From Candidatus Zixiibacteriota bacterium (GTDB lineage Bacteria > Zixibacteria > MSB-5A5 > UBA10806 > 4484-95), in assembly GCA_037441845.1 (NCBI GenBank), contig JBBIRK010000002.1, forward strand, positions 286,854-350,853: 64,000 nucleotides of DNA. The letters are read 5' to 3'. The stretch's first letter is position 1. Each line of letters begins with the position of its first letter. Made by a program: the position numbers and the translations under genes. A model generated the notes under the pieces. It saw nothing but the letters and a program-made list of their open reading frames with translations, was not told the DNA's origin and did no database searches. This document shows, piece after piece, positions 12,227 to 63,409 of the stretch.

Positions 12227-13171
12227 TCAACGGTTTCGCTTATTTACCCCTATTTCGGGATCGTAAACGAAACGCACCAGCGTCCTACCCACTTCCCCGA
12301 GACTCGATTCGGAGCATTTGTCCGGGGTATCGGCGAGAGTATGCCAGAAAGGATAATCCATGTCAATAATATCTATGGCGGGGAAACCGGCCTGCAGAAA
12401 CGGGACGTGGTCATCGAGGACGGTGTGTTTGACATCATCGAAAAAATGAGCGGCGTTTTCGATCTTAGCGGCTTTCCAGAATTTATCGACGAGCCATCGC
12501 GCGTGCGTATTCGAATAATATTCGCGGTGAATTTGCAAATCGCTGTCGCCGATCATGTCGAGAAGAATCACCGCGGAGGGCCTATAACCGCCTATATTCC
12601 GAACGAAGTATTTACTGCCGAGCAACCAACCTTCAGGGTAGTCGTCGCGTCCATAGTCTTCACCATCGAAAAACACGATATCGACGCCTATCGGGGGCCT
12701 ATGGAATTTCATGATTTCGGCCATGACCAGCAGGACCGCCACGCCCGAGGCGGCATCATTGGCACCGAGCACGGGCTGTCGGTGCAGAGACGTATCGGAC
12801 TCTTTGTCGGCCCGGGGGCGGCAGTCCCAGTGGGCGCAGAAAAGGATTCTGGTTTTATGTTCGGGGTTGAACGAGGCGATCAGGTTGGTCAAGCGAAGCG
12901 TATCGTTTTTCTTGTTATCGATATGAATAAATTGCTGCCGACGGCAGATCGGCGTTGTTTCTTGTAGCTTTTGCAGAAGGTATTCGCGGCATCGGTCATG
13001 CGCCGGGCTGTTGGGTGTGCGGGGACCGAAAGCGCATTGTTGTTCGATATATTCGAAGGCGCGTTTAGAATCGAACGAAGGCAGCCGAGGATGCGAACAG
13101 GCAAGCGGAAAAGCGGCCAGCGCAAGGAATACCGCGGCTGCGACCGCGCTTAAAATCTTAATTCGGTCCAT
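12227..13171 (-). CDS. M28 family peptidase / glutaminyl-cyclase-like
   Basis: GANDAASGVAVLL, FFDGEDYG and DDHVPF motifs. Start moved to MDRIKILSAV (signal peptide); the track ORF carries a 58-codon spurious extension. Overlaps the sprA stop by 22 nt. Confidence 0.8.
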   Translation of the reverse strand: MDRIKILSAVAAAVFLALAAFPLACSHPRLPSFDSKRAFEYIEQQCAFGPRTPNSPAHDRCREYLLQKLQETTPICRRQQFIHIDNKKNDTLRLTNLIASFNPEHKTRILFCAHWDCRPRADKESDTSLHRQPVLGANDAASGVAVLLVMAEIMKFHRPPIGVDIVFFDGEDYGRDDYPEGWLLGSKYFVRNIGGYRPSAVILLDMIGDSDLQIHREYYSNTHARWLVDKFWKAAKIENAAHFFDDVKHTVLDDHVPFLQAGFPAIDIIDMDYPFWHTLADTPDKCSESSLGEVGRTLVRFVYDPEIGVNKRNR

Positions 13172-16100
13172 ATACCGAGCTCGCGGATGTGCCTTTTGCG
13201 TTGCTGGATTTTGTCGTTGGAATCGACCCAGCGGGCCTGGAGACCGCCGGTGATTTTGGCGGAGAAGCGATAAGATGCTTTGGGTTCGACGCTGGTTTCC
13301 ACACGATCGGATTCGACCGTTTTCAGGGCATTTTGAATCGACCAATTTTTATTGAATCGTTTGTTATAGTCGAGCGAAAGAGTCAATTGGCTTTCGAATT
13401 TCAGTTTGCCGAATATCGGGATATTGATTCCCCGTGGAGCGGTGAGCGAATACCCGAGGGATATTCTTATGGTGCGATCCTGCGAATAGCTGGTACGTTG
13501 ATTGATCCCCTCGCTGCGAAGGTTCTCCGATTTTCTCTTGTTGAAGTCGTAGCGGGCGGTGATACGAACTTCCTTGGGGAGAGTGGCATTGACCGCCAAC
13601 AGCGGCGTATAGGAATCGGCGACGTTGCGGCTGTATTTCTGGTCGGTATCGGCATGACCGGATTTATCGATTTTACGGGCGTAATTCGACTGCATGGTGG
13701 CGGTTTTGGCGAATTTTTTGAACAGAGGGAACTTTTCGACGCCCGAGATATTGACATCGATTCTCGGGAAATCGAGCGAGGTGTTTTTGACCGGGTCGGT
13801 GGTGGTTCGGGTTATGCCGACCCGGAATTTATAGGAAACTCCGATATCGACACCGGTTAAGGGAGCCAGTCCCGATCCGATCGAATAATCCTGGTTGTAG
13901 ATTTTTTGTTCGCGCGTTCCCAGGCCGATTACGGTGTTTTTGGGAACGCCCGGGTCATCGGCGAAACCGAGCGTATACTTCCAATCAGGTCTTCTATAGA
14001 GGCCGGATTGGTTCATTTTTTTATCGAAAGTGTAGCCCAAAGTCAGCGGTTTTATGGAGCGGATGGTGTTCAGGGCCGGTTTGAAAATTTTGAGTGGATT
14101 GGGCAATTTGAACGGTTTGCCGGGCTTTTTCTTTTCGGGACTGAATTCTTCGGCCTCTTCCTGCTCGCCCTGCTCTTTGTCGTTTTTCTCGCCCGGCGCG
14201 GCTTTGGGCGCAGCTGGGGCTTTGCCCGCACCACGCTTTTTCAGGCCGAGAATGTCGAAAATGTCGAGGCTCAAGTCGCCCCGCAATGTGGCCCCCACTT
14301 GAGAAGTTTTCGTAGTGTCGATACTGCGGGCGAAATCGGAATTGTCGGAGTAATTGGAATTGTACTGGAATCTGGGCGCAATCTTGCTGGTAAGCCGCGG
14401 CGAAAAGGAGACATCGAAACGTTGGCTGAAGGTTCTTTCGCGGCCGAGTTTGATGTCGCGTGGATCGTAGGCGAATTTGAGGGTGGCCGGATCGCTTATA
14501 TCGCGATTGCTGGTCATGGAGAAGCTGGTTTTCAGACTGCTGAACAAATCGAAACCGTAATTTTGCGTAAGCGCGAGGTCACGCACATAGGAGGAGGTTC
14601 GGATTCCCCGCTGGTTGACGGAAAAACTTCGGGTGCTGTTGACCGTGCCGTCGAATTTCAAAGTGGTCGGCAGAAAAGACAACTGCGCCGAATGGATACC
14701 CGAGGGCATAAAGAGATATTTGGTCCAGTAAAAAGGTTTTATGGTCGGGCGCGACCGGGGAGCAAGATCGTAAGAGCCGGTGGCGTTGTAAGTGGTAGTG
14801 CGGCTCAAGGGCGTGGTGGGATTCAGGCTGGATTGTTTTCCATAGGTGCCGCCGATGGTGAATCTGTTCAGGGTCCAGGCCCAGAGCCAATTGTTGGTAT
14901 TGCGGCGGAATTGCTCTCTGGCGGAAACCGACCACGAGCGGCTCTCCGATTTATAAAATTCCCGCAGGTCTGCCGGGAGAATAATATCCGAGCTGGGCAT
15001 TAGGCGCGGCAGCTGGCGGCTTTGCTGCCAGTTGTAAGTTATGGGCAATTTCAATTGCCATGACGGCGGGGCGATTTTATCGACATTGATGGTGGCGCTG
15101 ACCGATTGAGTTGTCGAAAGCGAACCGCCCGGCTTTTTGTCGAGCAATCTGACATAATCGGCGCCCTGGCGGTTGTAGTTGGCGTTGATATTCACGAAAT
15201 CAGCCAGGCCGACCGTGATACCGAGCCTTCCGGCGAAATCGGAATTGCGTCGGACGCCGGTGACGCGCAATTCATCGCACCAGACTTCGCCCGATACGGT
15301 CTGCGTATCCGCGACCAGACTGTCGTTGTAAACCCCGATTACGAAGCAGCGGATGCTCGAAAGGCTCGGATTTCCTTTTACCAGATAGGGCCCTTCCTGA
15401 TAGGCGATCGAATCGGGATGGTCGGCCGGACGCCGCGTTTTGAGAGCGGTCAATTCGGCGAAATCGATATCGACATGGTTGCCGTCAGCCCAGCCATCGG
15501 ACAACACCGTTTGATATTCGTAGTAATTGTTGCGGGAAGTGTCCACTCCCATCCGGAAAAAGAATTTCAGACGTCCGCCATCCGCGGAGTTATCGCCGTG
15601 TACGAACATTTTCATGCTCGAATAAAGGGTATAGTCCTCGGGCTGATAAAGATACCAGTAGGCGCGCACGCTTTGGCCGGGGCTCAGATTTTCGTAGCGT
15701 AGGACCAGGGATTGTTCCTTTTCGACGACGCCCGTTTCGCGATTGGATTGGGCGATTACTCCAGGCGGCGAGGTATAGCCGATATTTTCCTGAGTGTTCT
15801 TGACGGTAACCTCGAACGTTATGTTCGATTCTTCCGGACGCAGGGGAGCTTTGCGCCATTTGTTGCCGACTAGTTGTATCGAGGCGAGTTTGAGCAGATA
15901 CTGCTGCGATGCTCCCGAAATCCACAATCTGACGAATTTGATCTGCGAGAAATCACTCAGATTGGCGTTGCCGACCGAGGTGAACGCGGTGCTGTCCTGC
16001 AGAGGAATACGCAGCAATTTCCAGCCGGTTCGGGTGGAATCGGCGATTACGGTGTCGGGTTCCAAGAGGTTCACCGTATAGGAGAAGTAGGAATTCACCA

Positions 16101-19100
16101 GATCGGTGTAGGTATTGTTGTTGATATCCTCGGTGTCGAAACGATTGAGCCGATCGGGGTCGTTGCGGTTCCCCTCGGTGCCGTTGATACGGGAAAAATC
16201 GTTGCGTTCGGCGTTGGTGCCGGTTTTATACGACCAGTCGTCGCCGTTGGGATCGGGGTTGGCGGCCTGATCGAAACCGGGTTCCTGCGGGTTGGGCAAT
16301 CCATCGAGCCCGACGTCTTCGTTTTGTTCGAAAATGCCGTTGCGATTGAAGTCTTCGGTAAAGGGAACGGACGAACCGTCGCCGTCGAGATCCTCGCTGA
16401 TCTTGCCTATATCGATATGGAATAGAGGATGGTCGAGGCCGTCGTAAGTGGTATCGGGTTGATACCAGATCTCGATGAACTGGGTGAGCGATTGATCGTT
16501 CATTCCGGAGAAGAGCGGGCGCATAATGCCGGACCAGGCGGCTTGGGGATTGAGAATGGTGTCGGAATTGGGGCTGTATCTGAGAATCAAGACGTCGGTG
16601 CGATTGTCCTGGTCGCGCACCGAGCGATCGGGCCAGATATCGGTGAGCAGATAAGGAGTGTATGGGTTATACCACCACAATTTGCGTTTGGCGGCCAGAT
16701 TCATGCCGACCGGCGGCGAAGCCGTGGTCCAAATGCCACGGCGGGTCATCAGATCGGTATAGTCGCGGGAGCCCTCGAAATCGTCGATATAGGCGTCGTT
16801 ACGAAGATTGGGATTGGGAAAGCTTTGGGCGACTTCGCCGGAGATATCGATTCGGGAAGCGGTTTCGGTTTCGATGAAGGGCAGGAAATCGACCGCCCGA
16901 GTGAGAACCTTCGGCGCGAAGCCGAATATGAAGTTGGAGTCCCAGATCATGGAGCTGCGCGGTTCGCGACCTACCCGCGGGCGATATTCTCTGGCTGATT
17001 CCTTGCGATACATCCCGGCCCAGGACAACCAGGATTTGTCGTTGATATTGTATTTGGCGGAAAGGCCGAAAAATGATTTTTTCTCGGCGAGGAAAAACGG
17101 CGCATATTCGAAATCGATGCTAACGTTGTTGGTGGGATTAAGGGCTTCCTGGTTTATGAATGTAATCTGGCCGAGATCGTAATTTATGCTGTAATCGACG
17201 CCCCGTTGCAGGGTTTGACCGTTGCCCATGCGCACCACCTCGGAGTTTTCGATGATATTGGTGCGGCCGAGGCTGAACGTGGTCGATCTTTTGGACGATT
17301 TCACGTAAATGTAATAGGTTTGGTTATTGGCGCGGCTGGAGTTGTCATAGGGCAAATCGTAAATCAAGGGATTGCGCGTGTTGAGGACGGGCGAATCGAA
17401 GGGACGCGCCATAGGGAAAATCAAGTGTCCGCGGCCGGCATCGATAACGGTGCTGACGAAATCGAACTGGCAGTCCGGCGTGCGGGCGCGGGTCGAGTTG
17501 TTTAGGCTGTCGAGGCCGAGCAACGTGATATAGCAAATCTGATTTTGATCGGTGGTGTCGGTGTTAAGGTCGCCATGGCCCTTATATATCTGCAATTCGA
17601 ACCCGGCTTCGGTGAGGTCTCTTCCTCTGAGGTCATAGACGTTGCGCCATTCGAGATCCCAAGTCGAGAAGGACGAATCCGGGTTGATTGCCTTGATAAG
17701 TTTGAGCACCAACGTATCGCCGCGCAGGTTCCCCTCTCGCAGTGTATCGTAAGGCGCGTTTTTGCGGACATATTCGATATAGGCGGCAAGAAAGTCGCCG
17801 GTTTGGTCGCTGATAGGCTGATGCAGGGTGATGAACCAACCCGCCCGATTGAGATCGAAGTCGTTGTCGTTGAGCCGCAGCATATGGCTCTGCACAAATT
17901 CGCTTCGGCTTTGTTCCTGCTGGGTCTCGTAGTAAAGGGTATCGTTGCCGCCGGTTTCGTCCGGGTTCGGGCCGTAATGAGGATCGACGCAGGCTTTGCC
18001 GTAGGCGTCATGCTGAGTCGGCTGGGGACCGCCTTTGCGATAAAGTACCACGCGCAAGAGAGAATCGGTGGCGGGATTGAATTCGTTCGGGCGTCCCAGC
18101 CAGAAATAGACGTTATGCAGGTAGGCGTAATCATAGATGGTATCTTGTGAGCCCTGGGCACCGGCTTGAAAAGTCGCTTTTTCGGACGCTCCTTTTTCCT
18201 GGGAGGTTATCATCGTCAATTCCGTATTACCCACTTTGGCGGTGGCTTTGATGCCGAACAATCCCTGGACGTTTTGGGAGAAACCGATCAACTGCGCGTT
18301 CGGCAGCGACAGGTTGGTATTTCCGGCCTCGACCGTCTGCAGTATTTCGTCTTCCCCGCCCTTATAGCGCAGTTTAAGCGTGTTGGCCAACTCCTGATCG
18401 CGATTGGAGTCCTGATCGACCTCGATGCTCAGCTTGGAGCCTATGTCGCCCTTGATTTTAAAACGCGAGGTCTGCTCCATGTGCAGAGAGGGGAATTTCG
18501 ATTGTTTGAAGGTACCGGTATTGACGAGATTATCTTCCCATTCTGATCGCCCGGAGAAAGCGATTCGTCGGGAGCCGGTGACGGTGATGCGCGGGCCGCC
18601 TTCGCCGATAATGGAGCGGACCGATTTGGGAACATTGCCGATATTTATCGGGATCTGGATCCCCTCCGCTGCCTTGGGCTTGCTTTGCGTGCCGCTGAAA
18701 CCGGCCATTTCAGCGGCCCATTGTTTGCGCAGATAATTTTCGGAAGAACTTCTGACGTAACTGTCGAAATCGACGGCGATCGGATTATAAACGGCGAATT
18801 TGCCGAAACTGCGGGTGAGACGGACATAATCGATAGAACCGGTGACATCGACCCGCCATTTCAATTTTATCAGGTCGAACTTCAGGATATAGCAATCATC
18901 TTCGATCAGGGACAACCCGCCCGGAAAATTCCGAAGCAACGGCGGAGGAGCGTATGGATTATTATATTTCAGCCTGACGACGAATTCATTATCGGCCGCA
19001 AATGCCGATACGCACCACGTCGTCAGCGCAAGTAAGAATCCCGCAAGCGAGAAGAGCAAATTGGTTCGTTTCAGAGACAAACGAGCTCCACTTAAAATCA

Positions 19101-19101
19101 A
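13150..19101 (-). CDS. sprA: T9SS translocon / gliding-motility protein SprA (Sov)
   Basis: 1983 aa secreted protein with SprA N-terminal family pattern (TLKLRYKGGEDEILQTVEAGNTNLSLP) and beta-rich repeats throughout. Confidence 0.8.
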   Translation of the reverse strand: MILSGARLSLKRTNLLFSLAGFLLALTTWCVSAFAADNEFVVRLKYNNPYAPPPLLRNFPGGLSLIEDDCYILKFDLIKLKWRVDVTGSIDYVRLTRSFGKFAVYNPIAVDFDSYVRSSSENYLRKQWAAEMAGFSGTQSKPKAAEGIQIPINIGNVPKSVRSIIGEGGPRITVTGSRRIAFSGRSEWEDNLVNTGTFKQSKFPSLHMEQTSRFKIKGDIGSKLSIEVDQDSNRDQELANTLKLRYKGGEDEILQTVEAGNTNLSLPNAQLIGFSQNVQGLFGIKATAKVGNTELTMITSQEKGASEKATFQAGAQGSQDTIYDYAYLHNVYFWLGRPNEFNPATDSLLRVVLYRKGGPQPTQHDAYGKACVDPHYGPNPDETGGNDTLYYETQQEQSRSEFVQSHMLRLNDNDFDLNRAGWFITLHQPISDQTGDFLAAYIEYVRKNAPYDTLREGNLRGDTLVLKLIKAINPDSSFSTWDLEWRNVYDLRGRDLTEAGFELQIYKGHGDLNTDTTDQNQICYITLLGLDSLNNSTRARTPDCQFDFVSTVIDAGRGHLIFPMARPFDSPVLNTRNPLIYDLPYDNSSRANNQTYYIYVKSSKRSTTFSLGRTNIIENSEVVRMGNGQTLQRGVDYSINYDLGQITFINQEALNPTNNVSIDFEYAPFFLAEKKSFFGLSAKYNINDKSWLSWAGMYRKESAREYRPRVGREPRSSMIWDSNFIFGFAPKVLTRAVDFLPFIETETASRIDISGEVAQSFPNPNLRNDAYIDDFEGSRDYTDLMTRRGIWTTASPPVGMNLAAKRKLWWYNPYTPYLLTDIWPDRSVRDQDNRTDVLILRYSPNSDTILNPQAAWSGIMRPLFSGMNDQSLTQFIEIWYQPDTTYDGLDHPLFHIDIGKISEDLDGDGSSVPFTEDFNRNGIFEQNEDVGLDGLPNPQEPGFDQAANPDPNGDDWSYKTGTNAERNDFSRINGTEGNRNDPDRLNRFDTEDINNNTYTDLVNSYFSYTVNLLEPDTVIADSTRTGWKLLRIPLQDSTAFTSVGNANLSDFSQIKFVRLWISGASQQYLLKLASIQLVGNKWRKAPLRPEESNITFEVTVKNTQENIGYTSPPGVIAQSNRETGVVEKEQSLVLRYENLSPGQSVRAYWYLYQPEDYTLYSSMKMFVHGDNSADGGRLKFFFRMGVDTSRNNYYEYQTVLSDGWADGNHVDIDFAELTALKTRRPADHPDSIAYQEGPYLVKGNPSLSSIRCFVIGVYNDSLVADTQTVSGEVWCDELRVTGVRRNSDFAGRLGITVGLADFVNINANYNRQGADYVRLLDKKPGGSLSTTQSVSATINVDKIAPPSWQLKLPITYNWQQSRQLPRLMPSSDIILPADLREFYKSESRSWSVSAREQFRRNTNNWLWAWTLNRFTIGGTYGKQSSLNPTTPLSRTTTYNATGSYDLAPRSRPTIKPFYWTKYLFMPSGIHSAQLSFLPTTLKFDGTVNSTRSFSVNQRGIRTSSYVRDLALTQNYGFDLFSSLKTSFSMTSNRDISDPATLKFAYDPRDIKLGRERTFSQRFDVSFSPRLTSKIAPRFQYNSNYSDNSDFARSIDTTKTSQVGATLRGDLSLDIFDILGLKKRGAGKAPAAPKAAPGEKNDKEQGEQEEAEEFSPEKKKPGKPFKLPNPLKIFKPALNTIRSIKPLTLGYTFDKKMNQSGLYRRPDWKYTLGFADDPGVPKNTVIGLGTREQKIYNQDYSIGSGLAPLTGVDIGVSYKFRVGITRTTTDPVKNTSLDFPRIDVNISGVEKFPLFKKFAKTATMQSNYARKIDKSGHADTDQKYSRNVADSYTPLLAVNATLPKEVRITARYDFNKRKSENLRSEGINQRTSYSQDRTIRISLGYSLTAPRGINIPIFGKLKFESQLTLSLDYNKRFNKNWSIQNALKTVESDRVETSVEPKASYRFSAKITGGLQARWVDSNDKIQQRKRHIRELGIWTELRF

Positions 19102-33162: not shown

Positions 33163-33398
33163 AACTTTCTTCCCTATTGAAATCCGTTGTTCCGTCGTTT
33201 TTCGATTTATACGATAAAAGCCGCGGTAATGCAAGGAATTGCTTGGGGAAAACAGCGGATCCATCCTCGGTAAAGTTCAATTCCGGGAATAAGCGGATTA
33301 CTTTAGACGAGCTGCCGAAACAAAACGGACATAACTCATGTTATCCGCAATCATATGGAACATATGGAAATTCCAAACAACGGGATTGGAGGCCGATG

Positions 33399-34478
33399 AC
33401 GACCAAAAGCAAATTGATAGGTATTATCACCGTGGCGGTTGCGGTTGCCGGAGCCGCCTATGCGTTACCGAGATTCGCCGCCCGGGCCGAGCAGAAATGT
33501 AATCTCTGCCATATCAGCCCGAACGGCGGCGGGATGAGAAACTCTTTCGGAGGACAATATTTCGCTCAGACCGAAATGGCCGCCCGTAAGGTCGATTTCG
33601 AGGATATCGGGAGGTTCGACCCGATGGTTTCCAACAGCATAGCGATCGGGGCGGATATCCGAACCTTGTATCATCACGACGAGGATACCGAGCAATCGAC
33701 TTTTTTCCAGATGGAGGGGAATTTTTACCTGACGGCGCAATTGGACGAACGATTTTCGGCCACTCTCAATCGTGGTTTGTATTCGGGATTCGAGGCCTAT
33801 GGACTGGCTTATCTATTGCCGTGGGAAGGATATATCAAGGCGGGGAAATTCCAGCCCGCTTATGGCTGGTACACCGACGATCATACGACGTTCGTTCGGG
33901 AGAAGATGCTTTGGCGTCCCGGTTCGTACGATACGGGGATTGAGATCGGTCTGCTGCCGCAAAATTTTTCGGCGTCGCTGGGGATTTTCAACGGATCATC
34001 GGGGAGTTTCGACGAAAACAAAAGCAAAGCGATGGCGGCGCGCGCCGAGTTGAGGCGGAATGTAAGCGGAATCGGATTGGGCTTGGGGGGATCCTATTAT
34101 TACAATCGACGGCCGGCGGCCAGGGTCGATATGTATGGTCCGTTTTACTATTTGAAAAGCGGCGCGCTGGTGCTGACCGGCGAAATCGGCTTGCTGGGCA
34201 CCGATTCGGACCATTCCGACGGCTCGGCTTTGGCGGTTTCGCAGGAAATCGCGTGGGAGATAAAACGAGGATATTGGATCAAGGCGCAATACGATTTTTC
34301 CGATCCCGATATCGATATCAAGAGCGGGGCGTCGGTCCGCTACGGCGCGGGGCTGCAGTATTTTCCGATTGGATTCGTCGAGATAGCGCCGCTGATCAGA
34401 TATTACGACGAGATCGATGCTTCGGGGAATCATGACGGGTATGTGGTTTTCGACGGTCAGTTGCACTTTTTTTTCTAA
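33399..34478 (+). CDS. outer-membrane beta-barrel protein with N-terminal CxxCH heme-binding motif
   Basis: SD GGAGG; signal peptide (AYA); CNLCH immediately after cleavage; amphipathic beta-strand pattern; C-terminal HFFF. Confidence 0.55.
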   Translation, partial: TTKSKLIGIITVAVAVAGAAYALPRFAARAEQKCNLCHISPNGGGMRNSFGGQYFAQTEMAARKVDFEDIGRFDPMVSNSIAIGADIRTLYHHDEDTEQSTFFQMEGNFYLTAQLDERFSATLNRGLYSGFEAYGLAYLLPWEGYIKAGKFQPAYGWYTDDHTTFVREKMLWRPGSYDTGIEIGLLPQNFSASLGIFNGSSGSFDENKSKAMAARAELRRNVSGIGLGLGGSYYYNRRPAARVDMYGPFYYLKSGALVLTGEIGLLGTDSDHSDGSALAVSQEIAWEIKRGYWIKAQYDFSDPDIDIKSGASVRYGAGLQYFPIGFVEIAPLIRYYDEIDASGNHDGYVVFDGQLHFFF

Positions 34479-34487
34479 GGAAACAAG

Positions 34488-34877
34488 ATGCTTAAGGGGA
34501 CGATATTTCTGATTATTTTCGGTTTGTTTTTCGCAGGCGGTTGTTCCGATTTCGGCGACAGGATAACAGACGGCCAGGACCCGGCCGACACGCTGGTATA
34601 TTTTTCGCGCGATATACAACCGATATTCAACGCCAATTGCGGCGGCTGCCATGTTGGAGGAAATCAAGGGGGATTGACACTGGACAGCTACGCCACGCTC
34701 ATGAAAGGCGGCGATTCGGGTCCGGTGGTGCGCGCCGGCTTGCCCGACAGCAGTCTTTTGGTCCAGCGTATCGAGGGAACGATCCAGCCGAGGATGCCGC
34801 TGGCCGGACAACCGCTGTCGGCCGCCGATATTCAAGCAATACGCCGCTGGATTCTTCAGGGAACGCACAATAACTGA
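34488..34877 (+). CDS. lipoprotein with Planctomycete-type cytochrome c domain (PSCyt1-like)
   Basis: Lipobox AGGC; IQPIFNANCGGCH ... LPDSSLL ... RMP ... DIQAIRRWI matches the PSCyt1 pattern. Confidence 0.6.
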   Translation: MLKGTIFLIIFGLFFAGGCSDFGDRITDGQDPADTLVYFSRDIQPIFNANCGGCHVGGNQGGLTLDSYATLMKGGDSGPVVRAGLPDSSLLVQRIEGTIQPRMPLAGQPLSAADIQAIRRWILQGTHNN

Positions 34878-34985: not shown

Positions 34986-35014
34986 TTGACAACGGTACCG
35001 CTCCGTTGTAATAT
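34986..35014 (+). promoter_or_regulatory. sigma70-like promoter TTGACA-N17-TAATAT immediately upstream of kdsB
   Basis: Consensus hexamers; the kdsB GTG start is only 6 nt past the -10 box, implying a leaderless transcript if this promoter is used. Confidence 0.3.
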
Positions 35015-35019
35015 TATAT

Positions 35020-52505: not shown

Positions 52506-54115
52506 AAGTATATCGCCGCGTGTGCGGCATGTTCAATATCGAGATTTTCGGCTATGGTGTCAAATATAGATCGTCCGTATTTGCTGACATAATAGACAGG
52601 CGAAACGAGGCGTTCCTGGAATTGGTTATCGGGGAATAGGTAGTCGTGAGCCTTTTTCAATTGAGCGATGATTTCATTGTGCCTTTTTTTATTGGACGAT
52701 TTGAGTTTTCTGGCGAGCTCATGGGATTCGAAATCGATTTTTTTGCGGAAATTGAGAAGCAGATTGGCGCTTTCGGCATTGCCTGCTTGTTGCTGCGCCG
52801 CCAGATTTTCGAGATTGCGGCAATAGTCCGAAGTCAGGAATGTGAGATTATCGGCGGACTCGGCCGGGAACAGACGTTCGATCACCTTTCCGCCCAGGGC
52901 GTAGGGATCGGCTTTCAGTTCGGTTGGTTCAATATCATATTTTTGCAAAATCCGGGCGATGTGCGGCTCTATCAAGGTGGCACCGGGTCGGGGAAAAATT
53001 ATCGGGTGAGGGATACCGAAAAGCTCGAACCAGGGATCGATTTGCGCGAAATAAGCCAATTCGGAGGGTCCCACGATTTGCGCGACGACCGGGAAAGCGT
53101 GGCACTGGGCGATGGGTCGAAGCAGAACGTTGGGGGAAAACGATTCCGGGTGTGCAGATATCAAATCTTGCAATTCCGCGGCAGACCAGCGGTGGTCGGC
53201 GCCGTCGGCGATGAAATTATCGCCCTCGGTGAGGATATTGAATCGTTGGGGGGAGTGATAAAATAAACTCAGCTGACGAGGGGTCTTGTGAACCTGCGCG
53301 TGATAACCGGCGGAGACCAGAGTCTGCGATCTTTTCTCGTATATTTCGAAAGAACGCCTATGTTCTTTTAAATCGGCTGCGAAAATTGCGGCGAAATGGC
53401 TTTTCATGCCCGGTGCGTTCGGATCGACGAGAACGATGCCCCATTTGCCGAGGAATTTCATGAACAGCTTGCCGAACGCTGCAGTCAGCTTCTCCCCCGG
53501 TTCGTAGCAATCGCGGATATTTTCAAGAAGCGCCGGTTTGAATTCCGAATCGGGAAGTTCGGCGGTCAGGGCATCGATGAATTCGACGATCCGGTCGTCG
53601 AGGATAATCGAATCGAGGGGCGATTTGGGCAGAATCGTGGATGGGTTATATTCGAATTTGATCGAGGAGCCGTTTCTTTCGGGAAAAGCGGTCGAGTTGA
53701 TTTCGGCGAAATCGTGATCATCGCTGGCTATCCAAAAACAAGGAATCACCTTTCTTTTAAGCAAAGACTCGTAATGCCGGGCGAGCTTAGCGGCGGCGAG
53801 CGCTTTATAGATGATATACATGGGGCTAAGAAGCATTCCCGGCTGCTGGCCTGCGAAGACGCATAGCGTCCGCGTATCAGCCAAAGATTCAATGGCGGCC
53901 ATGGTTTCGCGGCCGGCCTCATACTCGGCGTTTTGACGAATCAGAATATCGCGAAGGGCGCTGCGCGGGTATGCCCGGGCATCGATCTCCGAGACCGTCG
54001 AAAAAATCGATCGAGGCTGGTCGTATGCAGTCGCAAAGAGCTCTTTCAGCCGCCCGGCCTTGTAATCGGCGTAAAGTTTAGAGGGCGGCGGGAATTCGAG
54101 GCATAAGGTTCGCAT
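52502..54115 (-). CDS. bshC: bacillithiol biosynthesis cysteine-adding enzyme BshC
   Basis: 537 aa; FAGQQPGMLLSPMYIIYKALAAAKLA...VIPCFWIASDDHDFAEIN matches the BshC hallmark TGQQ.GL..GPLYTIYK...FWIAGEDHDFDE. Confidence 0.8.
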   Translation of the reverse strand: MRTLCLEFPPPSKLYADYKAGRLKELFATAYDQPRSIFSTVSEIDARAYPRSALRDILIRQNAEYEAGRETMAAIESLADTRTLCVFAGQQPGMLLSPMYIIYKALAAAKLARHYESLLKRKVIPCFWIASDDHDFAEINSTAFPERNGSSIKFEYNPSTILPKSPLDSIILDDRIVEFIDALTAELPDSEFKPALLENIRDCYEPGEKLTAAFGKLFMKFLGKWGIVLVDPNAPGMKSHFAAIFAADLKEHRRSFEIYEKRSQTLVSAGYHAQVHKTPRQLSLFYHSPQRFNILTEGDNFIADGADHRWSAAELQDLISAHPESFSPNVLLRPIAQCHAFPVVAQIVGPSELAYFAQIDPWFELFGIPHPIIFPRPGATLIEPHIARILQKYDIEPTELKADPYALGGKVIERLFPAESADNLTFLTSDYCRNLENLAAQQQAGNAESANLLLNFRKKIDFESHELARKLKSSNKKRHNEIIAQLKKAHDYLFPDNQFQERLVSPVYYVSKYGRSIFDTIAENLDIEHAAHAAIYL

Positions 54116-57100
54116 CAGTCGGCCGTCGTTTCAGCAGGCAACCCGGATTCAACGGCTGCGGTTCCGGCGGTTTCGATCGCCACCGTTTCGCGGCCGGTAA
54201 GGCGTTTTACGATATCATCGAGGATGGTATAGACAACCGGCACGACGACCAAAGTCAGAAGCGTCGACGAAATCAAGCCTCCTATAATAGCCCTGGCCAT
54301 CGGCGCTCGGAATTCGGCGCCCGGCCCGAGTCCGAAAGCAAGCGGCAAGGCACCGAAAATCATGGCGAATGTGGTCATCAAGATAGGCCTGAGTCGGATC
54401 GGTCCAGCGGTCAGCAGGGCCTCGGTTCGGGGCATTCCTTTGCGGCGGAGCTGTTTGGTGAGATCGATGAGCAGGATTGCGTTTTTGGTCACCAGTCCCA
54501 TGAGCAAGACGATTCCGATAAGTGACATGATCGAGAAAGTCGAGCGCCATATCAAAAGCAGGAACAGTGCGCCGACCACGGCCAGCGGCAAAGACAGCAT
54601 AATGGCCAAGGGATCGACGAATGACTCGAATTGGGAGGCCAAAAGCAGGTAGATGAAAATAATAGCCAGAATAAGGGCGGTGAATATGTTGCTGAACGAT
54701 TCGGCCATGATTTCGCCCGCGCCGACGATTTCGATTTTATACCCCGGCGGGATATTGATTTTGGACAGGTTGGCGGTCACGAAATTCGAGACATCGCTCA
54801 AGACGTAACCCTCGGCGAGATTGCAGCCGACGGAAGCGGAGCGTTGGCGGTCGTAACGGCGGACGTCGGTGGGGCTGGAGGCGAATTTCAGCGTGGCGAC
54901 GTTGCCCAACTCGAAATGTGCATTTCCGCCTTTGACGTCTTTCGTGGAAAATATCCGTATTTGCGCAAGGTCGTCAATATTGCGACGATATTTCGGGTGA
55001 AGCATCAACCTGATATTGTATTCTTCGTCGTTTTCCTTGAGCCGGGAGATATCGACGCCGTCTATCAAATTGCGCACGGTGCCTGCGATGGCGCCTATGG
55101 AAAGTCCGAGATCGTTGGCGATGTCACGATCGACATGAATTTGCAGTTCGGGTCTTCCCTGCTTTTCGCTGTTCAAGATGTCGACCGCTCCGGGGGCTTG
55201 GCGCAACAGGTCCTCCAATTCGTCGGCCAGCCTGCGGACAACCTCATGCTCCGGCCCTCTGATCGAGTATTCCAATTGCTGCTGGCTTCCCCCCTCGCCG
55301 CGCTCCGTGGCGACCTGGATGCTGAGACCGGCGATCGTCGAGAGGTCTTTTCTGATTTCGGGAATAAGCTGGAAGACGGATTTGGCTCGCTCGTTTTTCG
55401 GGTTAAGTTTTACGAAAATATCGCCTTCGTTGACGTTTCGGTTGCTGCCACCGATACGAGTGAGGATGCTTACCACCTCCGGATATTTTTTCAATTTTCC
55501 CTCTATGTCGGCGGCCAGCCGGGCAGTGTAATCGAGCGATTCGTCGGGGCTCGATTTGAAAGTGATCACCAACTGCGCCTGATCGGTTTGAGGCAGAAAC
55601 TCGCTGCCGATGAATTTGCCTGCGCCCAGAGCAATGATGAAAAGAATAGTCGCCAGAGCCAAGGTGGCCAAACGGTGTTCAAGCACCCAGTTCAAAGTCG
55701 TCCTGTAACGGCCGTCGAGGTTTTTGAAAAATCGGTGCCAGTTGCGTAACATGAATTTCACCATGTTGCCGGGGAGATTGATAAGTCCCGGTTTGGATTC
55801 GCCGATTTGTTCTTCTTTTTTCAGCCAGCGCGACGACAGCATCGGGGTGAGTGTGAAGGCGACGAATAATGATACCAGCACCGCACCGGCAACCGTGATG
55901 CCGAATTGATAGAAGAAGCGCCCGATTATGCCCGACATGAAGGCGACCGGAATGAAAACGACCATGATCGAGAAGGTAGTGGCCATGACAGCCAAGCCGA
56001 TTTCGGCGGTGGCGTTGCGGGCGGCGGCCATCGGTGATTCGCCGCTATCGAGATGGCGGTAGATATTTTCGATCACGACGATGGCGTCGTCTATGAGCAA
56101 CCCCACGGCCAGCGAAAGACCGAGCAATGTCATCATGTTTATCGAGAAGCCGAATGCGTTCATCAGAAAGATGGTGCTGATGATCGAGGTCGGAATAGCC
56201 AACGCCGAAATGATGGTGGATCGGATATTGGCCAGAAACAGGAAAATAACGAAGACCGCCAAGAGGCCGCCGTAAATCAGATTGACCACCACGTCGTCTA
56301 TGGATTCGCGTATGAAAATCGAGTTATCCTCGACGATTTCGGTCTTGACTCCGGTGGGGATATCTTTTTCGATTTCCTTGAGCCTTTCCTTGATTCCCTC
56401 GGCGGTGGCCACGATGTTTGCTCCCGATTGCCTGATCAGAGCCATCGAGATGGCCGGATTGCCGTTGAGGCGGGACAGACCATTGCGCTCTTTGACGCCA
56501 TCAACGACGTCCGCTATATCGTGAAGTCTGATTATTTTTCCGTTCGAGTTGCGAACGATGATTCGGGACAGTTCCTCCGGGGAAGCCGCTCGTCCCATGA
56601 CCCTGACCATAAGATCGGTTTGGCCCTGATTCAATTTGCCGCCGGGGAGTTCGAGATTGGCGGCTCTGACGGCGGCGGCGACTTCATCGGGAGTGATATC
56701 GAGGGCGTTGATTTTATCGAGATCGAGCAATATCTGGATTTCTCTTTCGCTGCCACCGATGATTTCGACCGAGCCCACACCGGGAACAGTTTCGAGATGG
56801 CGTTTCAGGAAGTTTTTAGCGAATCCAGTCAATTCTTTTTCGGATCTGTCGCCGGATACGGTGATGGTGATGATCGGCTGAGAAGCGGGGTCGTATTTTT
56901 GGATGACCGGACTCTCAGCATCGCGGGGAAGGTCGGCGGCGATTCCGGCGATTTTGTCGCGGACGTCCTGGGCGGCGACATCGGGATCGGTTTCGAGGCT
57001 GAATTCTATTATGATTTGGGAAAGCGATTCCCGTGAATAAGAAATGATGCGCTTAATACCGGCGATGGTATTGACGACGTCTTCGATTTTTTTGGTGACA

Positions 57101-57285
57101 TCGGTGGCGACGGCCTCGGAGCTGGCTCCCGGATAGACGGTCATCACGACCACGAACGGGAAATCGACATTGGGGAACAGCTCCACGTTCATTTTGAAGA
57201 ACGAGGCGAGTCCGAGGACCACCAGGGCGAGGATCACCATGGTGGCGAACACCGGCCTCTTGATTGCCGTATCAGCGAGATACAT
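54115..57285 (-). CDS. RND efflux transporter permease (AcrB/CzcA family)
   Basis: 1056 aa, 12-TM HAE1/HME pattern. Confidence 0.9.
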
Positions 57286-58312
57286 CGGCGGACTCCTCGG
57301 TTGAAACGATTACGGGTGTACGATCGCGCAGATTGCCTTTACCCACCACGACCACCAATTCGCCCTGCTCGAGCCCGCTTAAAACCTGGGTTTCATCGCC
57401 ATCGGTGGGACCGATTTCGATCGATCTGGCGAAGGCGGTGTCGCGGGCGACGACATAGACCTTGGCGATACCTTCTTCCGAGAACAGGGCGCTGTTTTTC
57501 ACGGCGAGGACACCTTTGAGATTATCCAATATCAACTGGCATTTGGCGAACATGCCGGGTTTGAGGTGACCATCGGGATTTTCCATTTCGATTTCGACTC
57601 GAAACAATCTGGTTTCGGGATCAGCCGAGCGCGCCTTTTCGATGACCCGGGCCTCCACCGGGCTGTCGCCATCGACCGTCACCCGAGCGCTCTGTCCCGA
57701 TTCGATTTTGGCGATATCGGCGGAATTCACGTATATGGTCATTCTCATTTTCGAGGTGGAGGCGATCGTCGCCAAAGGCAGGCCGAGCGGGACCTGTTCG
57801 CCGATATTTACTACGATGTCCGTGATGACGCCATCGATCGGCGAGGTAAGTTCGACCGATTCGCGGGCGGCGCTGAAATCGGCTTGGGCTACCTCGAAGG
57901 CGGTTCGGGCGCTGTTGTAATCATGTTCGGACACGGCTTTTTGTTCGAACAAGCGGGAGATCTTTTCGAAATTGTCCTTGGCCTGGCGAAAAACCGCCTG
58001 CGCCTGATGGTAACGCGAGTTTACACCGAGTTTATCGAGCAGAATGACCGGCTGACCCTTTTCCACGCGGCTGCCCTCTGGAAATGGGATTTCGACGACC
58101 CGTTCGGGAATGATCGCATAGATTTTCGCCTGCCGGGCGCCCTCGAGAGTGCCGGCGAACGATTTGGAGACGGTGATATCGGACAATCGGGCGGGAGCGA
58201 CCTTAACCGCCACTCGAGGAACAACGGGAGCGGTGTCCTTTCCTCCGCCGCAAGCTATCAGCAAAGCCAGAGGGAAAATCAGATAAATGCCATTTAATTT
58301 CATAAGCGCCAC
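57272..58312 (-). CDS. RND efflux periplasmic adaptor (MFP)
   Basis: Lipoprotein signal; biotinyl/lipoyl-like and beta-barrel domains. Confidence 0.85.
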   Translation of the reverse strand: MALMKLNGIYLIFPLALLIACGGGKDTAPVVPRVAVKVAPARLSDITVSKSFAGTLEGARQAKIYAIIPERVVEIPFPEGSRVEKGQPVILLDKLGVNSRYHQAQAVFRQAKDNFEKISRLFEQKAVSEHDYNSARTAFEVAQADFSAARESVELTSPIDGVITDIVVNIGEQVPLGLPLATIASTSKMRMTIYVNSADIAKIESGQSARVTVDGDSPVEARVIEKARSADPETRLFRVEIEMENPDGHLKPGMFAKCQLILDNLKGVLAVKNSALFSEEGIAKVYVVARDTAFARSIEIGPTDGDETQVLSGLEQGELVVVVGKGNLRDRTPVIVSTEESADVSR

Positions 58313-59644
58313 CTACCTTATCAAATCTTCTTCACCGAGGGCTTTCAGCAAAGCGGCAAGCCCGGTCACGAGATTGTTGAAAGCGATGATTTTATTGGTT
58401 TCGGCCGCGGTCAGGGCAACCTCGGCGTCGAACATTTCGAGTTGGGTTCCGACTCCGTTTTCGAATCTCAAGCGGGCGATGTCGAGTCCGCGGCGAGCCA
58501 TTTCCACCGTTTCCGATCCGGCGGTCAAGTTCTCGCGGGCTTTTTGATAATCGTACCAGCATCGCTCGAGCTCCAAAATGAGATTTTCTTCGAGTTCGGT
58601 TTCGGAAAGGCGTGAATTGGCCAAGTCGATTTTCGCCTGTTTGGCCTGGGAGACGGTCCGCCAGGAATCGAAAATCGGGATGGTTATGGCGATACCGGAA
58701 TAGGAGCTTCGCTTGAAATCGTCGGAGCCGGGGAAACGATCAAGATCGCTCTGTGCCTGATATTGCAAAGAAGTTTGAAAAAAGATCGACGGGCGCCAGC
58801 CGCCCCAGGCGATAGATACGGCTTTTTTGTAGATTTCGCTTTGGTAGCGGGCCATCTTGATTTCCGGTCGTTTTTCGAGCATGGCCATACGAGCCGAATC
58901 GAGATCAAAGTGCGGCAGCAGGTAGCGATCGATTTGCGGGTCTTGAACCAACCGCGGTTTGCTGTCGACCGGCAGGCCGATCAGGTTATTGAGATTTTTA
59001 TAGGCCAACTCGGCGCCGGCCTCGGCATCGATTCTATTGGGGCGGGCGTTGGCCAACCGCACCTGAGCCCTTAACACCTCGTAATCGGAAACCAGGCCTT
59101 GAGCGAACAGCTTGCGGGTGACCTCGAGGCCCTCGGCGGCCAATTTTTCGGCCTGAGCGGCGACTCTCAGTAATTCATCGGCCATGATCGCGGCGTAGAA
59201 CGATTTGATTACTTGTAATTGGAGATTTTGCCGGGCCAGGCGCAACTGTTCCTGAGTAAGTTTCTTATATGTCTTAGCGATACTAAGCGCGGTGAATACC
59301 TTGCCGCCTATATATATCGGCTGCGTCAAAGTCAATCCCGCGGTGTAGCTGTTGGTAGTACCGAATTTGACTTCCTGAGGACCGTCATCGCCGAAAGGCA
59401 CGACAAACGTGGGTAATTCCCAGTTGCGGACATAATTCAGGGAAGCTTCCAATTGCGGCAATGCGGACGACTGGGCCTCCGTAACCCGCCATCCCGCCTT
59501 TTCATGTTCCTTGACGGCCCGCAGATACTCCTCGTTGTTTTGCAATCCGAGTTGGATTGCCTGCTCGAGAGTGAGATCCATCTGAGCCGCCGATGTTCCA
59601 GTGATCAATAAAGCGATCCAAAAAGCAAAAATCGTTTTCCTCAC
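58313..59644 (-). CDS. TolC family outer membrane efflux protein
   Basis: Signal peptide; two-repeat TolC pattern. Confidence 0.85.
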   Translation of the reverse strand: MRKTIFAFWIALLITGTSAAQMDLTLEQAIQLGLQNNEEYLRAVKEHEKAGWRVTEAQSSALPQLEASLNYVRNWELPTFVVPFGDDGPQEVKFGTTNSYTAGLTLTQPIYIGGKVFTALSIAKTYKKLTQEQLRLARQNLQLQVIKSFYAAIMADELLRVAAQAEKLAAEGLEVTRKLFAQGLVSDYEVLRAQVRLANARPNRIDAEAGAELAYKNLNNLIGLPVDSKPRLVQDPQIDRYLLPHFDLDSARMAMLEKRPEIKMARYQSEIYKKAVSIAWGGWRPSIFFQTSLQYQAQSDLDRFPGSDDFKRSSYSGIAITIPIFDSWRTVSQAKQAKIDLANSRLSETELEENLILELERCWYDYQKARENLTAGSETVEMARRGLDIARLRFENGVGTQLEMFDAEVALTAAETNKIIAFNNLVTGLAALLKALGEEDLIR

Positions 59645-61724: not shown

Positions 61725-62354
61725 CTAACGGGAGGAGAGCGATCGGATCGCCGCCCGCAATTCGATTAAGCTCGAGTCGCTGAAAGGGTCATAGTAGCCG
61801 CGGATGCGGGCTTGCCTGTCCACCAATACGAAACGCGAGCTATGATCGGCGGGCAAGTTATCGGCGGACAGCATGAATCCGTTTTCCGAGAGGTCGGCCA
61901 CTTCGTCGATCGGCCCGCGCAAGAAAAGCCAGCGGTCGTCGGTTACTCCGAAAGCCGCGGCATATTTTTGCAACACCGGCAGCGAATCGTAATCGGGGTC
62001 GACATCGATGGAGACGAATTGGATATCTGGAAAAGCGGCATATTCTTTGTAAAGTTCGGCCATTTTGGTGGACATTACCGGGCAGATGCTGTGGCATCTG
62101 GTGAAAAAGAAACAAATCACGCTGGTCTTGCCGAGTAGTCCGGCACTTCCGAAGGGAATATTAGATTGGGTGACGAACCGGAATTCGGGCACCTGCCCCA
62201 GTATCGGCAATCGGTCCGATGACGAATCGGCCAAGTGATTTCGCATAAAAATAAGCGCCAGCAACAGAGCCAACAGCACCGTTGCACCGAGATATAGCCC
62301 GAATTTGATCGGCAAGCGGCCGGTGCTTTTAAGGCTGTGGGACGAACCCGCCAT
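61725..62354 (-). CDS. SCO1/SenC copper chaperone
   Basis: CHSICP motif in a thioredoxin fold; N-terminal TM. Confidence 0.8.
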   Translation of the reverse strand: MAGSSHSLKSTGRLPIKFGLYLGATVLLALLLALIFMRNHLADSSSDRLPILGQVPEFRFVTQSNIPFGSAGLLGKTSVICFFFTRCHSICPVMSTKMAELYKEYAAFPDIQFVSIDVDPDYDSLPVLQKYAAAFGVTDDRWLFLRGPIDEVADLSENGFMLSADNLPADHSSRFVLVDRQARIRGYYDPFSDSSLIELRAAIRSLSSR

Positions 62355-62355
62355 C

Positions 62356-62754
62356 TTAATGACCTTCGTGCCCGGCGGGGGCGACGGTATCCGCCGGTTG
62401 GTTTTGATAGATCACCGCCTCGGGATTTACCGGATTGGCCAGGATTTCATAAACAGTGCCGCGCTCCATGGTGTCGAACATGGTCAAAATCAGAAAAACC
62501 CCGAGGAACACTATGGAGATCAGGAATATGGTGAGATAGATTTTCTTGTCGTAGAGCAAGTGCATGAAAAAGAGCGCCACCAAAGAGGCTTTGAGAGTGG
62601 CGATACCCAGGGCCACCACTACGTTCCAGCCGCCGAGGTTTATACGCGACACGGCAACCGTAACCGCAGTCAAGATAAGCAATGCAGACCCGGTGCCGAG
62701 ATAGATTTTCAGCGGCGTAACGTGATCGTCGGTTCTTGCGTGAGAGATTTCCAT
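62356..62754 (-). CDS. cytochrome c oxidase subunit IV (bacterial aa3/caa3 type)
   Basis: Three TM helices with the CoxIV pattern. Confidence 0.65.
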   Translation of the reverse strand: MEISHARTDDHVTPLKIYLGTGSALLILTAVTVAVSRINLGGWNVVVALGIATLKASLVALFFMHLLYDKKIYLTIFLISIVFLGVFLILTMFDTMERGTVYEILANPVNPEAVIYQNQPADTVAPAGHEGH

Positions 62755-62758
62755 AAAA

Positions 62759-63406: not shown

Positions 63407-63409
63407 AGG

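Follow-up and report, generated by a model that had tools for sequence, protein, structure and literature searches.

A Cyc2-like haem porin and its PSCyt1 lipoprotein partner as a candidate two-gene outer-membrane redox module in Zixibacteria

A stretch of 64,000 nucleotides from a Candidatus Zixiibacteriota bacterium (contig JBBIRK010000002.1; this whole stretch is called the window below) contains two adjacent genes whose products, here named P1 and P2, are the only ones in the window with a CxxCH haem-binding motif. P1 is predicted to be an outer-membrane porin with a single haem c domain fused to its N-terminus, and P2 is predicted to be a small lipoprotein cytochrome. By analogy with the fused cytochrome-porin Cyc2, the pair is best explained as a two-gene Cyc2-type redox module that conducts electrons across the outer membrane, an interpretation that we favour by a modest measure. 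It is based on the architecture of the pair, the N-terminal homology to Cyc2, the conservation of the haem site, the conserved pairing of the two genes, the cytochrome c6-like nature of P2, and the presence of oxidase genes nearby. An earlier note on this DNA had offered a compact outer-membrane electron conduit and a haem/iron uptake module as two possible readings, and the evidence collected here favours the former.

The features of P1, all on the forward strand of the window, are listed below.

33388..33392, + strand: GGAGG, a Shine-Dalgarno-like element 3 nucleotides ahead of the P1 ATG (read from the sequence)
33396..34478, + strand: P1, predicted Cyc2-like fused monohaem cytochrome and 16-strand porin, 360 amino acids (open reading frame, ORF)
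33396..33464, + strand: predicted Sec signal peptide of P1, residues 1-23, MTTKSK followed by a hydrophobic core and cleavage between AYA and LP (sequence, homologue alignment)
33465..33638, + strand: predicted N-terminal haem module of P1, residues 24-81, LPRFAARAEQK-CNLCH-ISPNGGGMRNSFG (alignment, hhalign, motif statistics)
33498..33512, + strand: haem c attachment site of P1, C35-N-L-C38-H39 (sequence; invariant in 31 of 31 aligned)
33639..34472, + strand: predicted 16-strand beta-barrel of P1, residues 82-359, with a C-terminal HFFF beta-signal (DSSP strands of the AlphaFold2 model, Foldseek)

The start of P1 was assigned to the ATG at 33396, since homologues start at the equivalent methionine in the alignment. 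The earlier note had placed the start at 33399 and P2 10 nucleotides downstream of P1; both values are corrected here, the P2 start lying 9 nucleotides past the P1 stop. A longer TTG-start ORF from 33177 was considered as P1 and rejected, as it overlaps a divergent deaminase gene and receives no support from the homologue alignment. The cleavage site of the signal peptide was assigned by eye according to the AXA rule; it directly precedes the conserved LPRFA motif and aligns with the signal peptides of homologues. The CNLCH motif (residues 35-39) lies some 12 residues past the start of the mature protein and outside the signal peptide, in agreement with the earlier claim that the haem site stands among the first mature residues and is not removed with the signal peptide. 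In the AlphaFold2 model, the haem module contains short helices at residues 25-31, 50-61 and 68-71. Among 31 aligned homologues, no variation is seen at P25, C35, C38, H39, G44, R48 or G52, and at least 90% have M47. The sequence that follows the attachment site in P1 reads CH-I-S-P-N-G-G-G-M, and the corresponding family pattern, CH-x-x-P-x-GGGM, suggests His/Met ligation of the haem with the methionine as distal ligand. No Pfam or NCBIfam family was matched by P1 in profile scans, and no sequence relative was found by a search of the PDB.

The remainder of P1 is predicted to fold into a porin. The AlphaFold2 model, built on the 31 homologues, has a mean predicted local distance difference test score (pLDDT) of 86 and a predicted template modelling score (pTM) of 0.81, with 16 beta-strands across residues 82-359. 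A Foldseek comparison of the model with the PDB returned 16-strand porins, among which OprP (2o4v) ranked first with an E-value of 1.6e-11 and OprO (4rjw) showed the highest query template modelling score (TMq 0.63). The C-terminus (...QLHFFF) is of the expected kind, and the last residue is F, Y, W, L or I in 203 of 214 full-length family members. Thus, the outer-membrane beta-barrel with an HFFF end that had been predicted earlier is borne out by the model. The phosphate/anion-selective porins OprP and OprO, which are also the templates used for the Cyc2 porin, are the best structural matches of the P1 barrel (TMq 0.61-0.63), but they share only about 10% identity with P1 and possess no haem domain; nothing in the evidence points to trimers or to an arginine ladder in P1. 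A sub-cut-off match of the barrel to the NCBIfam family LbtU was also recorded (E 0.006, 16 bits versus a cut-off of 90).

The features of P2 are as follows.

34488..34877, + strand: P2, predicted lipoprotein monohaem class-I cytochrome c of the PSCyt1 type, 129 amino acids (ORF, Pfam PF07635)
34488..34556, + strand: predicted lipoprotein signal peptide of P2, lipobox FAGG-C19, with the conserved C-S-D-F-G after the lipidated cysteine (sequence)
34638..34652, + strand: haem c site of P2, C51-G-G-C54-H55 (sequence)
34794-34796, + strand: putative distal ligand of P2, M103 within RMP, residues 102-104 (alignment to cytochrome c6)

Residues 51-104 of P2 match the Pfam family PSCyt1 (PF07635) with an E-value of 6.9e-10 and 39.8 bits against a gathering cut-off of 22, and its predicted lipidation site lies in the context ...GLFFAGG-C19-SDFGD; the lipobox fits the PROSITE PS51257-type pattern. 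The earlier assignment of P2 as a PSCyt1 lipoprotein cytochrome is thereby confirmed at the level of the Pfam domain and the lipobox. The whole mature domain (residues 46-129) aligns with cytochrome c6 (4eid, E 6e-4), and the positions of CxxCH and Met-Pro are superposed. Residues 62-128 of P2 also gave an insignificant match (E 0.13, 15 bits) to an Fe(II) oxidoreductase, FoxE from Rhodobacter ferrooxidans SW2 (PDB 5mab), and this was rejected as a sign of kinship; the likeness probably reflects shared class-I cytochrome features. The acidic residues after the lipidated cysteine (C-S-D-F-G-D) stand at +3 and +6 and are not consecutive, and the consensus of the family at this point is C-[SK]-D-x-G. 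As defined by experiment, the Bacteroidetes lipoprotein export signal consists of K, Q or S followed by at least two consecutive D/E at +3 to +6, as in SDDFE, SDDDD and K-(D/E)2 (Lauber 2016), so that the C-x-D-x-G motif of P2 resembles this signal in part only.

The closest known counterpart of P1 is Cyc2, in which a signal peptide precedes a single CXXCH fused to a porin of 16 strands, for which OprO and OprP served as models (Keffer 2021). Two sequence motifs have been described for it, namely AXPXFAR[Q/K][T/Y] upstream of the haem site, which was stated to be unique and was used as a filter, and PXL about 4 amino acids downstream (Keffer 2021). Cyc2 and P1 have in common a mature N-terminus of the form x-P-x-F-A, a CxxCH motif six residues after F-A, a short helical haem module, an OprP/OprO-like 16-strand porin with a C-terminal aromatic residue, and a c-type cytochrome gene that commonly lies downstream. 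For comparison, a control set of 120 listed full-length PxFARQT-type proteins was fetched with a reconstructed gene (from locus L083); this Cyc2-type set is defined by the motif and not by membership of Cyc2 clusters 1-3, and its members are named only 'cytochrome C [Rhodomicrobium sp.]' or 'hypothetical'. One control protein (P0104), modelled in the same way as P1, was likewise predicted to have 16 strands and matched porins of the same class. The spacing P-x-F-x(7)-CxxCH was found in 196 of 214 P1 family members and in 119 of the 120 Cyc2-type proteins, whereas the surrounding motifs separate the two sets:

PxFAR[QK][TY]: P1 family 0/214; Cyc2-type set 93/120
PxL after the haem site: P1 family 0/214; Cyc2-type set 117/120
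CxxCH-x-x-P: P1 family 190/214; Cyc2-type set 0/120
Met at His+8: P1 family 145/214; Cyc2-type set 0/120

Profile comparisons placed the shared sequence at the N-terminus. An hhalign comparison of the P1 family with 22 aligned members of the control set (alignment A4) covered 31 columns (probability 92%, E 5e-7), and larger alignments gave 28 columns (probability 95.7%, E 1e-8); in each case, the columns comprise the signal-peptide end and the haem motif only. Reciprocal hidden Markov models (HMMs) matched the N-termini of 119 of 120 Cyc2-type proteins and 211 of 214 P1 family members, with domain scores up to about 27 bits and full-sequence scores up to 31.5 bits, and it is the N-terminal 28-45 residues alone that align between the two sets. 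Homology of the barrels is not claimed: the global hhalign probability was 0.06, and a greedy local alignment (mact 0.05) was co-linear over 330 columns with no added score. On this sequence evidence, P1 is homologous to Cyc2 at least in the haem module. By analogy, it is treated here as a protein that works like Cyc2 yet lies outside Cyc2 as currently defined.

Several differences set the two apart. The upstream motif of P1, A-L-P-R-F-A-A-R-A-E-Q, keeps AXPXFA but has the arginine one position off and lacks [QK][TY], so that FAR[QK][TY] of Cyc2 is replaced by FAARAEQ in P1 and by FA[SA]RTG in its family. P1 is 360 amino acids long and the family median is 376, compared with roughly 400-500 for Cyc2. 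The family is at home in the Fibrobacterota-Chlorobiota-Bacteroidota (FCB) group and Cyc2 in Proteobacteria; the partner of P1 is a PSCyt1 lipoprotein and that of Cyc2 is Cyc1 (c4) or rusticyanin. The published Cyc2 pipeline requires at least 365 amino acids, PXFAR[QK][TY] and a BLASTP E-value of at most 1e-5 (Keffer 2021), and the FeGenie paper uses 375 amino acids. P1 falls below both length filters, as do 38 of the 214 family members with respect to 365 amino acids; the length cut-off is an arbitrary filter and not biology.

Some Cyc2-type genes (PxFARQT or PxFARKY) in long-read metagenome contigs carry frameshifts or internal stops that split them into pieces of 60-300 amino acids (L081:3001-4800, L082:3001-4400 and L083:3001-4424). 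Because of this breakage, a short-query search had returned only 'proteins' of 47-86 amino acids. The Cyc2-type gene in L083 is followed by two Cytochrom_C genes, which agrees with the proposed two-gene module, and that in L081 by a cytochrome c ORF, read from the frame translation, and a weak COX4_pro match.

The P1 family is large. A word-indexed search found 70 relatives, all named 'hypothetical' and mostly from Zixibacteria, and when 1.84 billion cluster representatives were searched exhaustively with a profile, 3,680 clusters at 50% identity were obtained with E-values of at most 1e-3, including 2,085 at or below 1e-10 and 603 at or below 1e-30. Lengths are mostly 340-436 amino acids among the best 150 clusters. 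The nearest relative, with 78% identity, is labelled 'uncultured Ignavibacteria', and the next, with 50-58% identity, are from Zixibacteria or labelled 'uncultured Ignavibacteria/bacterium'. Exactly one CxxCH is present in 212 of 214 full-length members, and across the haem region the consensus of the family reads A-x-A-L-P-R-F-A-x-R-x-G-x-x-C-x-x-C-H-V-N-P-T-G-G-G-M-R. When one genome was scanned for each GTDB species, 354 loci were identified, the best 80 of which come from Zixibacteria, Ignavibacteria, Bacteroidota/Chitinophagales, Eisenbacteria, Krumholzibacteriia, Latescibacterota, Fibrobacteraceae and Verrucomicrobiia; the main hosts of the family are Zixibacteria, Ignavibacteria, Bacteroidota and Eisenbacteria, and the habitats include soils, fens, lakes and aquifers/groundwater. 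In the window itself, an ORF of 1,983 amino acids (13150-19101, - strand) encodes the SprA-type (SprA/Sov) translocon of the type IX secretion system (T9SS; SprA_N, E 1.5e-34), which indicates an FCB-group organism with T9SS surface biology.

The best 80 of the 354 GTDB loci were used together with the window (81 loci, 823 kb in all) for a census of neighbourhoods, in which partners were sought in all six frames with a purpose-built HMM of the PSCyt1 domain. In 66 of 81 loci, such a domain was found within 2 kb of the barrel gene and on its strand, downstream in 55 and only upstream in 11. In 5 of the 15 loci without a partner, the contig stops right after the barrel gene, which leaves 66 of 76 informative loci with a partner, and only 3 PSCyt1 domains were found away from barrel genes in the whole 823 kb. 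The high rate of pairing and the scarcity of stray domains show that P1 and P2 belong to a conserved unit, as expected from the earlier proposal of a cognate pair.

Two types of partner can be distinguished. Type A is a lipoprotein in which C-x-D-x-G is followed by zero to three immunoglobulin-like (Ig-like) domains of the He_PIG/BIG type and then by the PSCyt1 domain; among 30 such partners, D occupies +3 in 27 and G occupies +5 in 27 after the lipidated cysteine. A lipobox cysteine is present in 30 of 70 adjacent PSCyt1-type partner ORFs. The haem motif of type A (n=30) is CX2CH in 13, CX4CH in 11, CX3CH in 1 and CXCH in 1, and P2 of the window, whose CGGCH is canonical, belongs to the short forms of type A. 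Type B is a PSCyt1 cytochrome that has a signal peptide and is not lipidated, and it comes after type A in many loci of Bacteroidota and Ignavibacteria; at least two PSCyt1 domains lie downstream in 19 loci, and the window contains no type B gene. Variant motifs observed in P2 orthologues include CVNAGCH and CGGSQCH (CX4CH) and even CPCH. Ig-bearing orthologues were seen just downstream of the barrel gene in L003-L009, L020, L027-L031, L038-L041 and L057-L066. Type B, which gives a three-gene module, has the consensus KKxCLPCHAEDNFNPSEL...PPFGDRMPLNSKKK...WIDQGAKNN, with examples at L029:7820-8209, L041:7839-8303 and L057:2103-2540.

Apart from the partner, the neighbours at the 80 loci are not conserved, with the exception of three recurring features. 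A secreted or surface protein of about 450 amino acids with He_PIG, CarboxypepD_reg and a Por_Secre_tail domain for T9SS sorting is encoded about 200 nucleotides upstream on the same strand in 24 loci (e.g. L075:1071-2420). An extracytoplasmic function (ECF) sigma factor lies upstream of the barrel gene in 9 loci. In 7-8 other loci, some of them from Bacteroidota, a HAMP histidine kinase and a sigma-54-dependent response regulator are found upstream on the same strand (e.g. L056:2022-3581 and L055:3798-5204), and 6 of 8 of these kinases contain CxxCH, so that the CxxCH-bearing HAMP kinase is possibly a haem-c sensor. The presence of kinase/sigma-54 or ECF sigma neighbours suggests a regulated, redox-related expression of the pair.

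Under the proposed conduit, P1 would be exported by the Sec pathway, acquire its single haem c at C35/C38/H39 once in the periplasm and then be inserted by the beta-barrel assembly machinery (BAM) as a 16-strand porin, with the small haem domain placed, by analogy with Cyc2, at the barrel's periplasmic opening or within it. P2, assumed to face the periplasm, would sit next to the barrel as a lipid-anchored protein with predicted His55/Met103 ligation and, by a presumed contact, relay electrons between the haem of P1 and the respiratory chain of the inner membrane. A small soluble reductant, for which Fe(II) is the prime candidate, would enter the pore and be oxidised at the P1 haem, from which the electron would pass through P2 to cytochrome c oxidase. 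An A-type (aa3-type) haem-copper oxidase cluster is present in the window at 61725-63988 on the - strand, containing COX1 (cut by the window end), COX3, COX4_pro and SCO1/SenC; it is a plausible electron sink for the pair, though it lies 27 kb off and in a different operon. By analogy, inward electron flow is the most likely physiological direction, and Fe(II) oxidation feeding cytochrome c oxidase is plausible. It is also conceivable, with somewhat less assurance than we attach to the conduit itself, that P1 represents a widespread FCB sister family of Cyc2, with its own His/Met haem environment, an obligate C-x-D-x-G PSCyt1 lipoprotein that may be displayed on the surface, and a minimal conduit for Zixibacteria, Ignavibacteria, Bacteroidota, Eisenbacteria and relatives that the motif and length criteria for curating Cyc2 would leave out.

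A number of observations weigh against this interpretation. The published Cyc2 signature motifs are absent from all 214 family members, and the iron-oxidase activity of Cyc2 is therefore not simply transferable to P1; moreover, hhalign and HMM comparisons found no significant sequence similarity between the barrels of the P1 family and those of the Cyc2-type set. Even among Cyc2 homologues, not all need be iron oxidases (Keffer 2021). The two genes lie amid housekeeping genes (a tadA-like deaminase gene, kdsB, pyrG and kdsA) and not beside oxidase or carbon-fixation genes. The host lineages (Bacteroidota, Ignavibacteria and Eisenbacteria) are for the most part known for organotrophic growth, and the habitats from which the family comes are not specifically iron-rich. 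Furthermore, the best 80 of the 354 family loci are metagenome-assembled genomes without exception, and the function of members is assigned by analogy.

The same hardware might run outward, with electrons passing from quinol through a bc complex or alternative complex III (ACIII) to P2, the P1 haem and finally soluble extracellular acceptors able to enter a porin, such as chelated Fe(III), humic quinones or flavins; the pair would then be a minimal outlet for extracellular electron transfer in organotrophic FCB bacteria. The mainly organotrophic hosts would suit such an export, and Ignavibacteria and Zixibacteria have repeatedly been put forward in the literature either as reducers of iron or as 'both oxidisers and reducers'; the family is found in soils, fens, lakes and groundwater rather than in iron mats, and the T9SS-tail protein just upstream in 24 loci points to cell-surface chemistry. 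However, the characterised relatives, that is, Cyc2 of Mariprofundus ferrooxydans PV-1 and Acidithiobacillus ferrooxidans together with Cyt572 of Leptospirillum (McAllister 2020, Keffer 2021), are oxidases, and an aa3-type oxidase is encoded nearby. His/Met class-I cytochromes of the c6/c551 type typically have a high potential, which suits the feeding of an oxidase over the reduction of Fe(III) and further weighs against export, which we regard as rather unlikely. A different arrangement, in which P2 is exposed on the surface, the barrel haem links this extracellular cytochrome to the periplasm and type B serves as the shuttle, would amount to a miniature MtrCAB of three monohaem proteins. 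It would account for the near-invariant C-x-D-x-G whatever domain follows, for the one to three Ig-like domains in many orthologues, which are typical of surface lipoproteins, and for the non-lipidated PSCyt1 cytochrome encoded next in 19 loci, which might be the real partner on the periplasmic side; the SprA translocon of the window organism and the weaker likeness to Bacteroidetes export signals (Lauber 2016) would also agree with it. Against surface exposure stand the one or two acidic residues only (SDFGD in the window, KDMG in Bacteroidota), which are below the minimum of two consecutive D/E, the restriction of the proven lipoprotein export pathway to Bacteroidota, and the lack of a second, soluble cytochrome gene beside the pair in the window, all of which make this arrangement quite unlikely in our estimation.

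Two further explanations concern the identity of the system. P1 could be an ordinary, already catalogued Cyc2 orthologue, such as the 'Cyc2 cluster 3' reported by FeGenie for Zixibacteria, Ignavibacteriales and Krumholzibacteria. Surveys based on FeGenie do report cyc2, often of cluster 3, in the same taxa, the Cyc2-type HMMs match the N-terminus of the family with up to 25 bits, and the family median of 376 amino acids passes the 365-amino-acid filter. Nevertheless, PxFAR[QK][TY] and PxL are found in none of the 214 members, the window protein is shorter than both filters, a similarity of about 30 residues is probably too short for the BLASTP criterion of 1e-5, and the database names are 'hypothetical protein' throughout, so that this identity is judged unlikely; literature searches on the family in Zixibacteria, Ignavibacteria and Bacteroidota, or on PSCyt1, turned up only FeGenie- or BLAST-based 'cyc2' calls given without sequence detail. 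Alternatively, there may be no conduit at all, and the covalent haem may act as a plug, a sensor or a catalytic site (e.g. for peroxide or nitric-oxide detoxification at the envelope), or the pair may form the haem/iron uptake module mentioned in the earlier note. The weak similarity to the siderophore porin LbtU, the lack of linked respiratory genes at most loci and the possibly haem-bearing sensor kinases at some loci might be cited for these functions, but the LbtU match is far under its cut-off, CxxCH implies a covalent cofactor supplied by a maturation system and not a cargo, and an obligate class-I electron-carrier partner is hard to fit with uptake or a plug. In addition, no TonB/ExbBD, haem-uptake, siderophore, haem oxygenase, ABC (ATP-binding cassette) importer or peroxidase genes co-occur in the window and the 80 loci. 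Uptake is thus not supported by these data, and a non-conduit function as a whole seems very improbable.

Compared with other known conduits, the proposed P1/P2 conduit would be much smaller. MtrCAB, MtoAB and PioAB likewise combine an outer-membrane barrel with haem to carry electrons and have the partner cytochrome gene in the same operon, but in these systems a separate decahaem cytochrome passes through a 26-strand porin and forms a haem wire of about 100-185 Å (Keffer 2021). P1/P2 has a barrel of 16 strands with a single fused haem and one monohaem partner, which agrees with the earlier remark that the pair is much smaller than MtrAB/PioAB. A Pfam scan revealed no sequence or Pfam relation of P1/P2 to MtrCAB, MtoAB or PioAB, and an ORF scan for CxxCH found no multihaem ORF in the 64-kb window. 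The partner also differs from known cytochromes of this kind. Cyc1- and MtoD-type cytochromes have the same proposed periplasmic role, relaying electrons from an outer-membrane oxidase to a terminal oxidase, and their genes lie beside or close to that of the outer-membrane component; Cyc1 is a c4 cytochrome with two haems and MtoD a soluble protein with one, whereas P2 is a predicted lipid-anchored PSCyt1 protein with a C-x-D-x-G N-terminus. The PSCyt1 domain of Planctomycetes usually occurs as a module within large multidomain proteins, whereas P2 is a free-standing lipoprotein of 110 amino acids, in its relatives sometimes with Ig-like domains ahead, and is dedicated to the haem-porin.

The one-haem fused porin design is already known from Cyc2. 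The compact module claimed in the earlier note stands, but the precedent of Cyc2, a fused monohaem cytochrome and 16-strand porin (Keffer 2021), had not been named there, and the design is less unprecedented than was implied. The novelty lies in a large, unannotated sister family that differs in its haem pocket, belongs to the FCB group and has as its near-obligate partner a PSCyt1 lipoprotein whose N-terminal motif is conserved. Environmental Fe(II) oxidation is mapped mainly with Cyc2 as the genetic marker, and the curated definition of Cyc2 (motifs and a length cut-off) is centred on Proteobacteria. If P1/P2 is a working conduit, electron transfer through one-haem porins would extend to a large part of the FCB group, and a compact two-gene system of roughly 50 kDa would be available that is directly testable by heterologous expression, as was done for PV-1 Cyc2. 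The P1 family would also help to make sense of the 'iron oxidation and reduction' that is frequently called in these phyla. If it is moreover a sister family left out by the Cyc2 criteria, iron or extracellular redox cycling by abundant heterotrophs of soil and sediment would be systematically under-counted or mis-assigned. If the family proves inactive toward iron, it would serve as a warning against Cyc2 calls made from the N-terminal motif alone.

In the window, P1 and P2 lie on the same strand between the divergent tadA-like deaminase gene and kdsB. Two further elements were found by a consensus scan in the interval that follows P2.

34989..35009, + strand: terminator-like hairpin after P2 (consensus scan, weak evidence)
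34986-35015: promoter-like site for kdsB, overlapping the P2 hairpin (consensus scan, weak evidence, as the scan does not cover FCB-type promoters)

An RND (resistance-nodulation-division) efflux system, unrelated to P1/P2, is encoded at 54115-59644 on the - strand and includes an AcrB-family pump of 1,056 amino acids. The pump gene is followed by ORFs resembling a membrane-fusion protein and an outer-membrane factor, as judged by position and length only.

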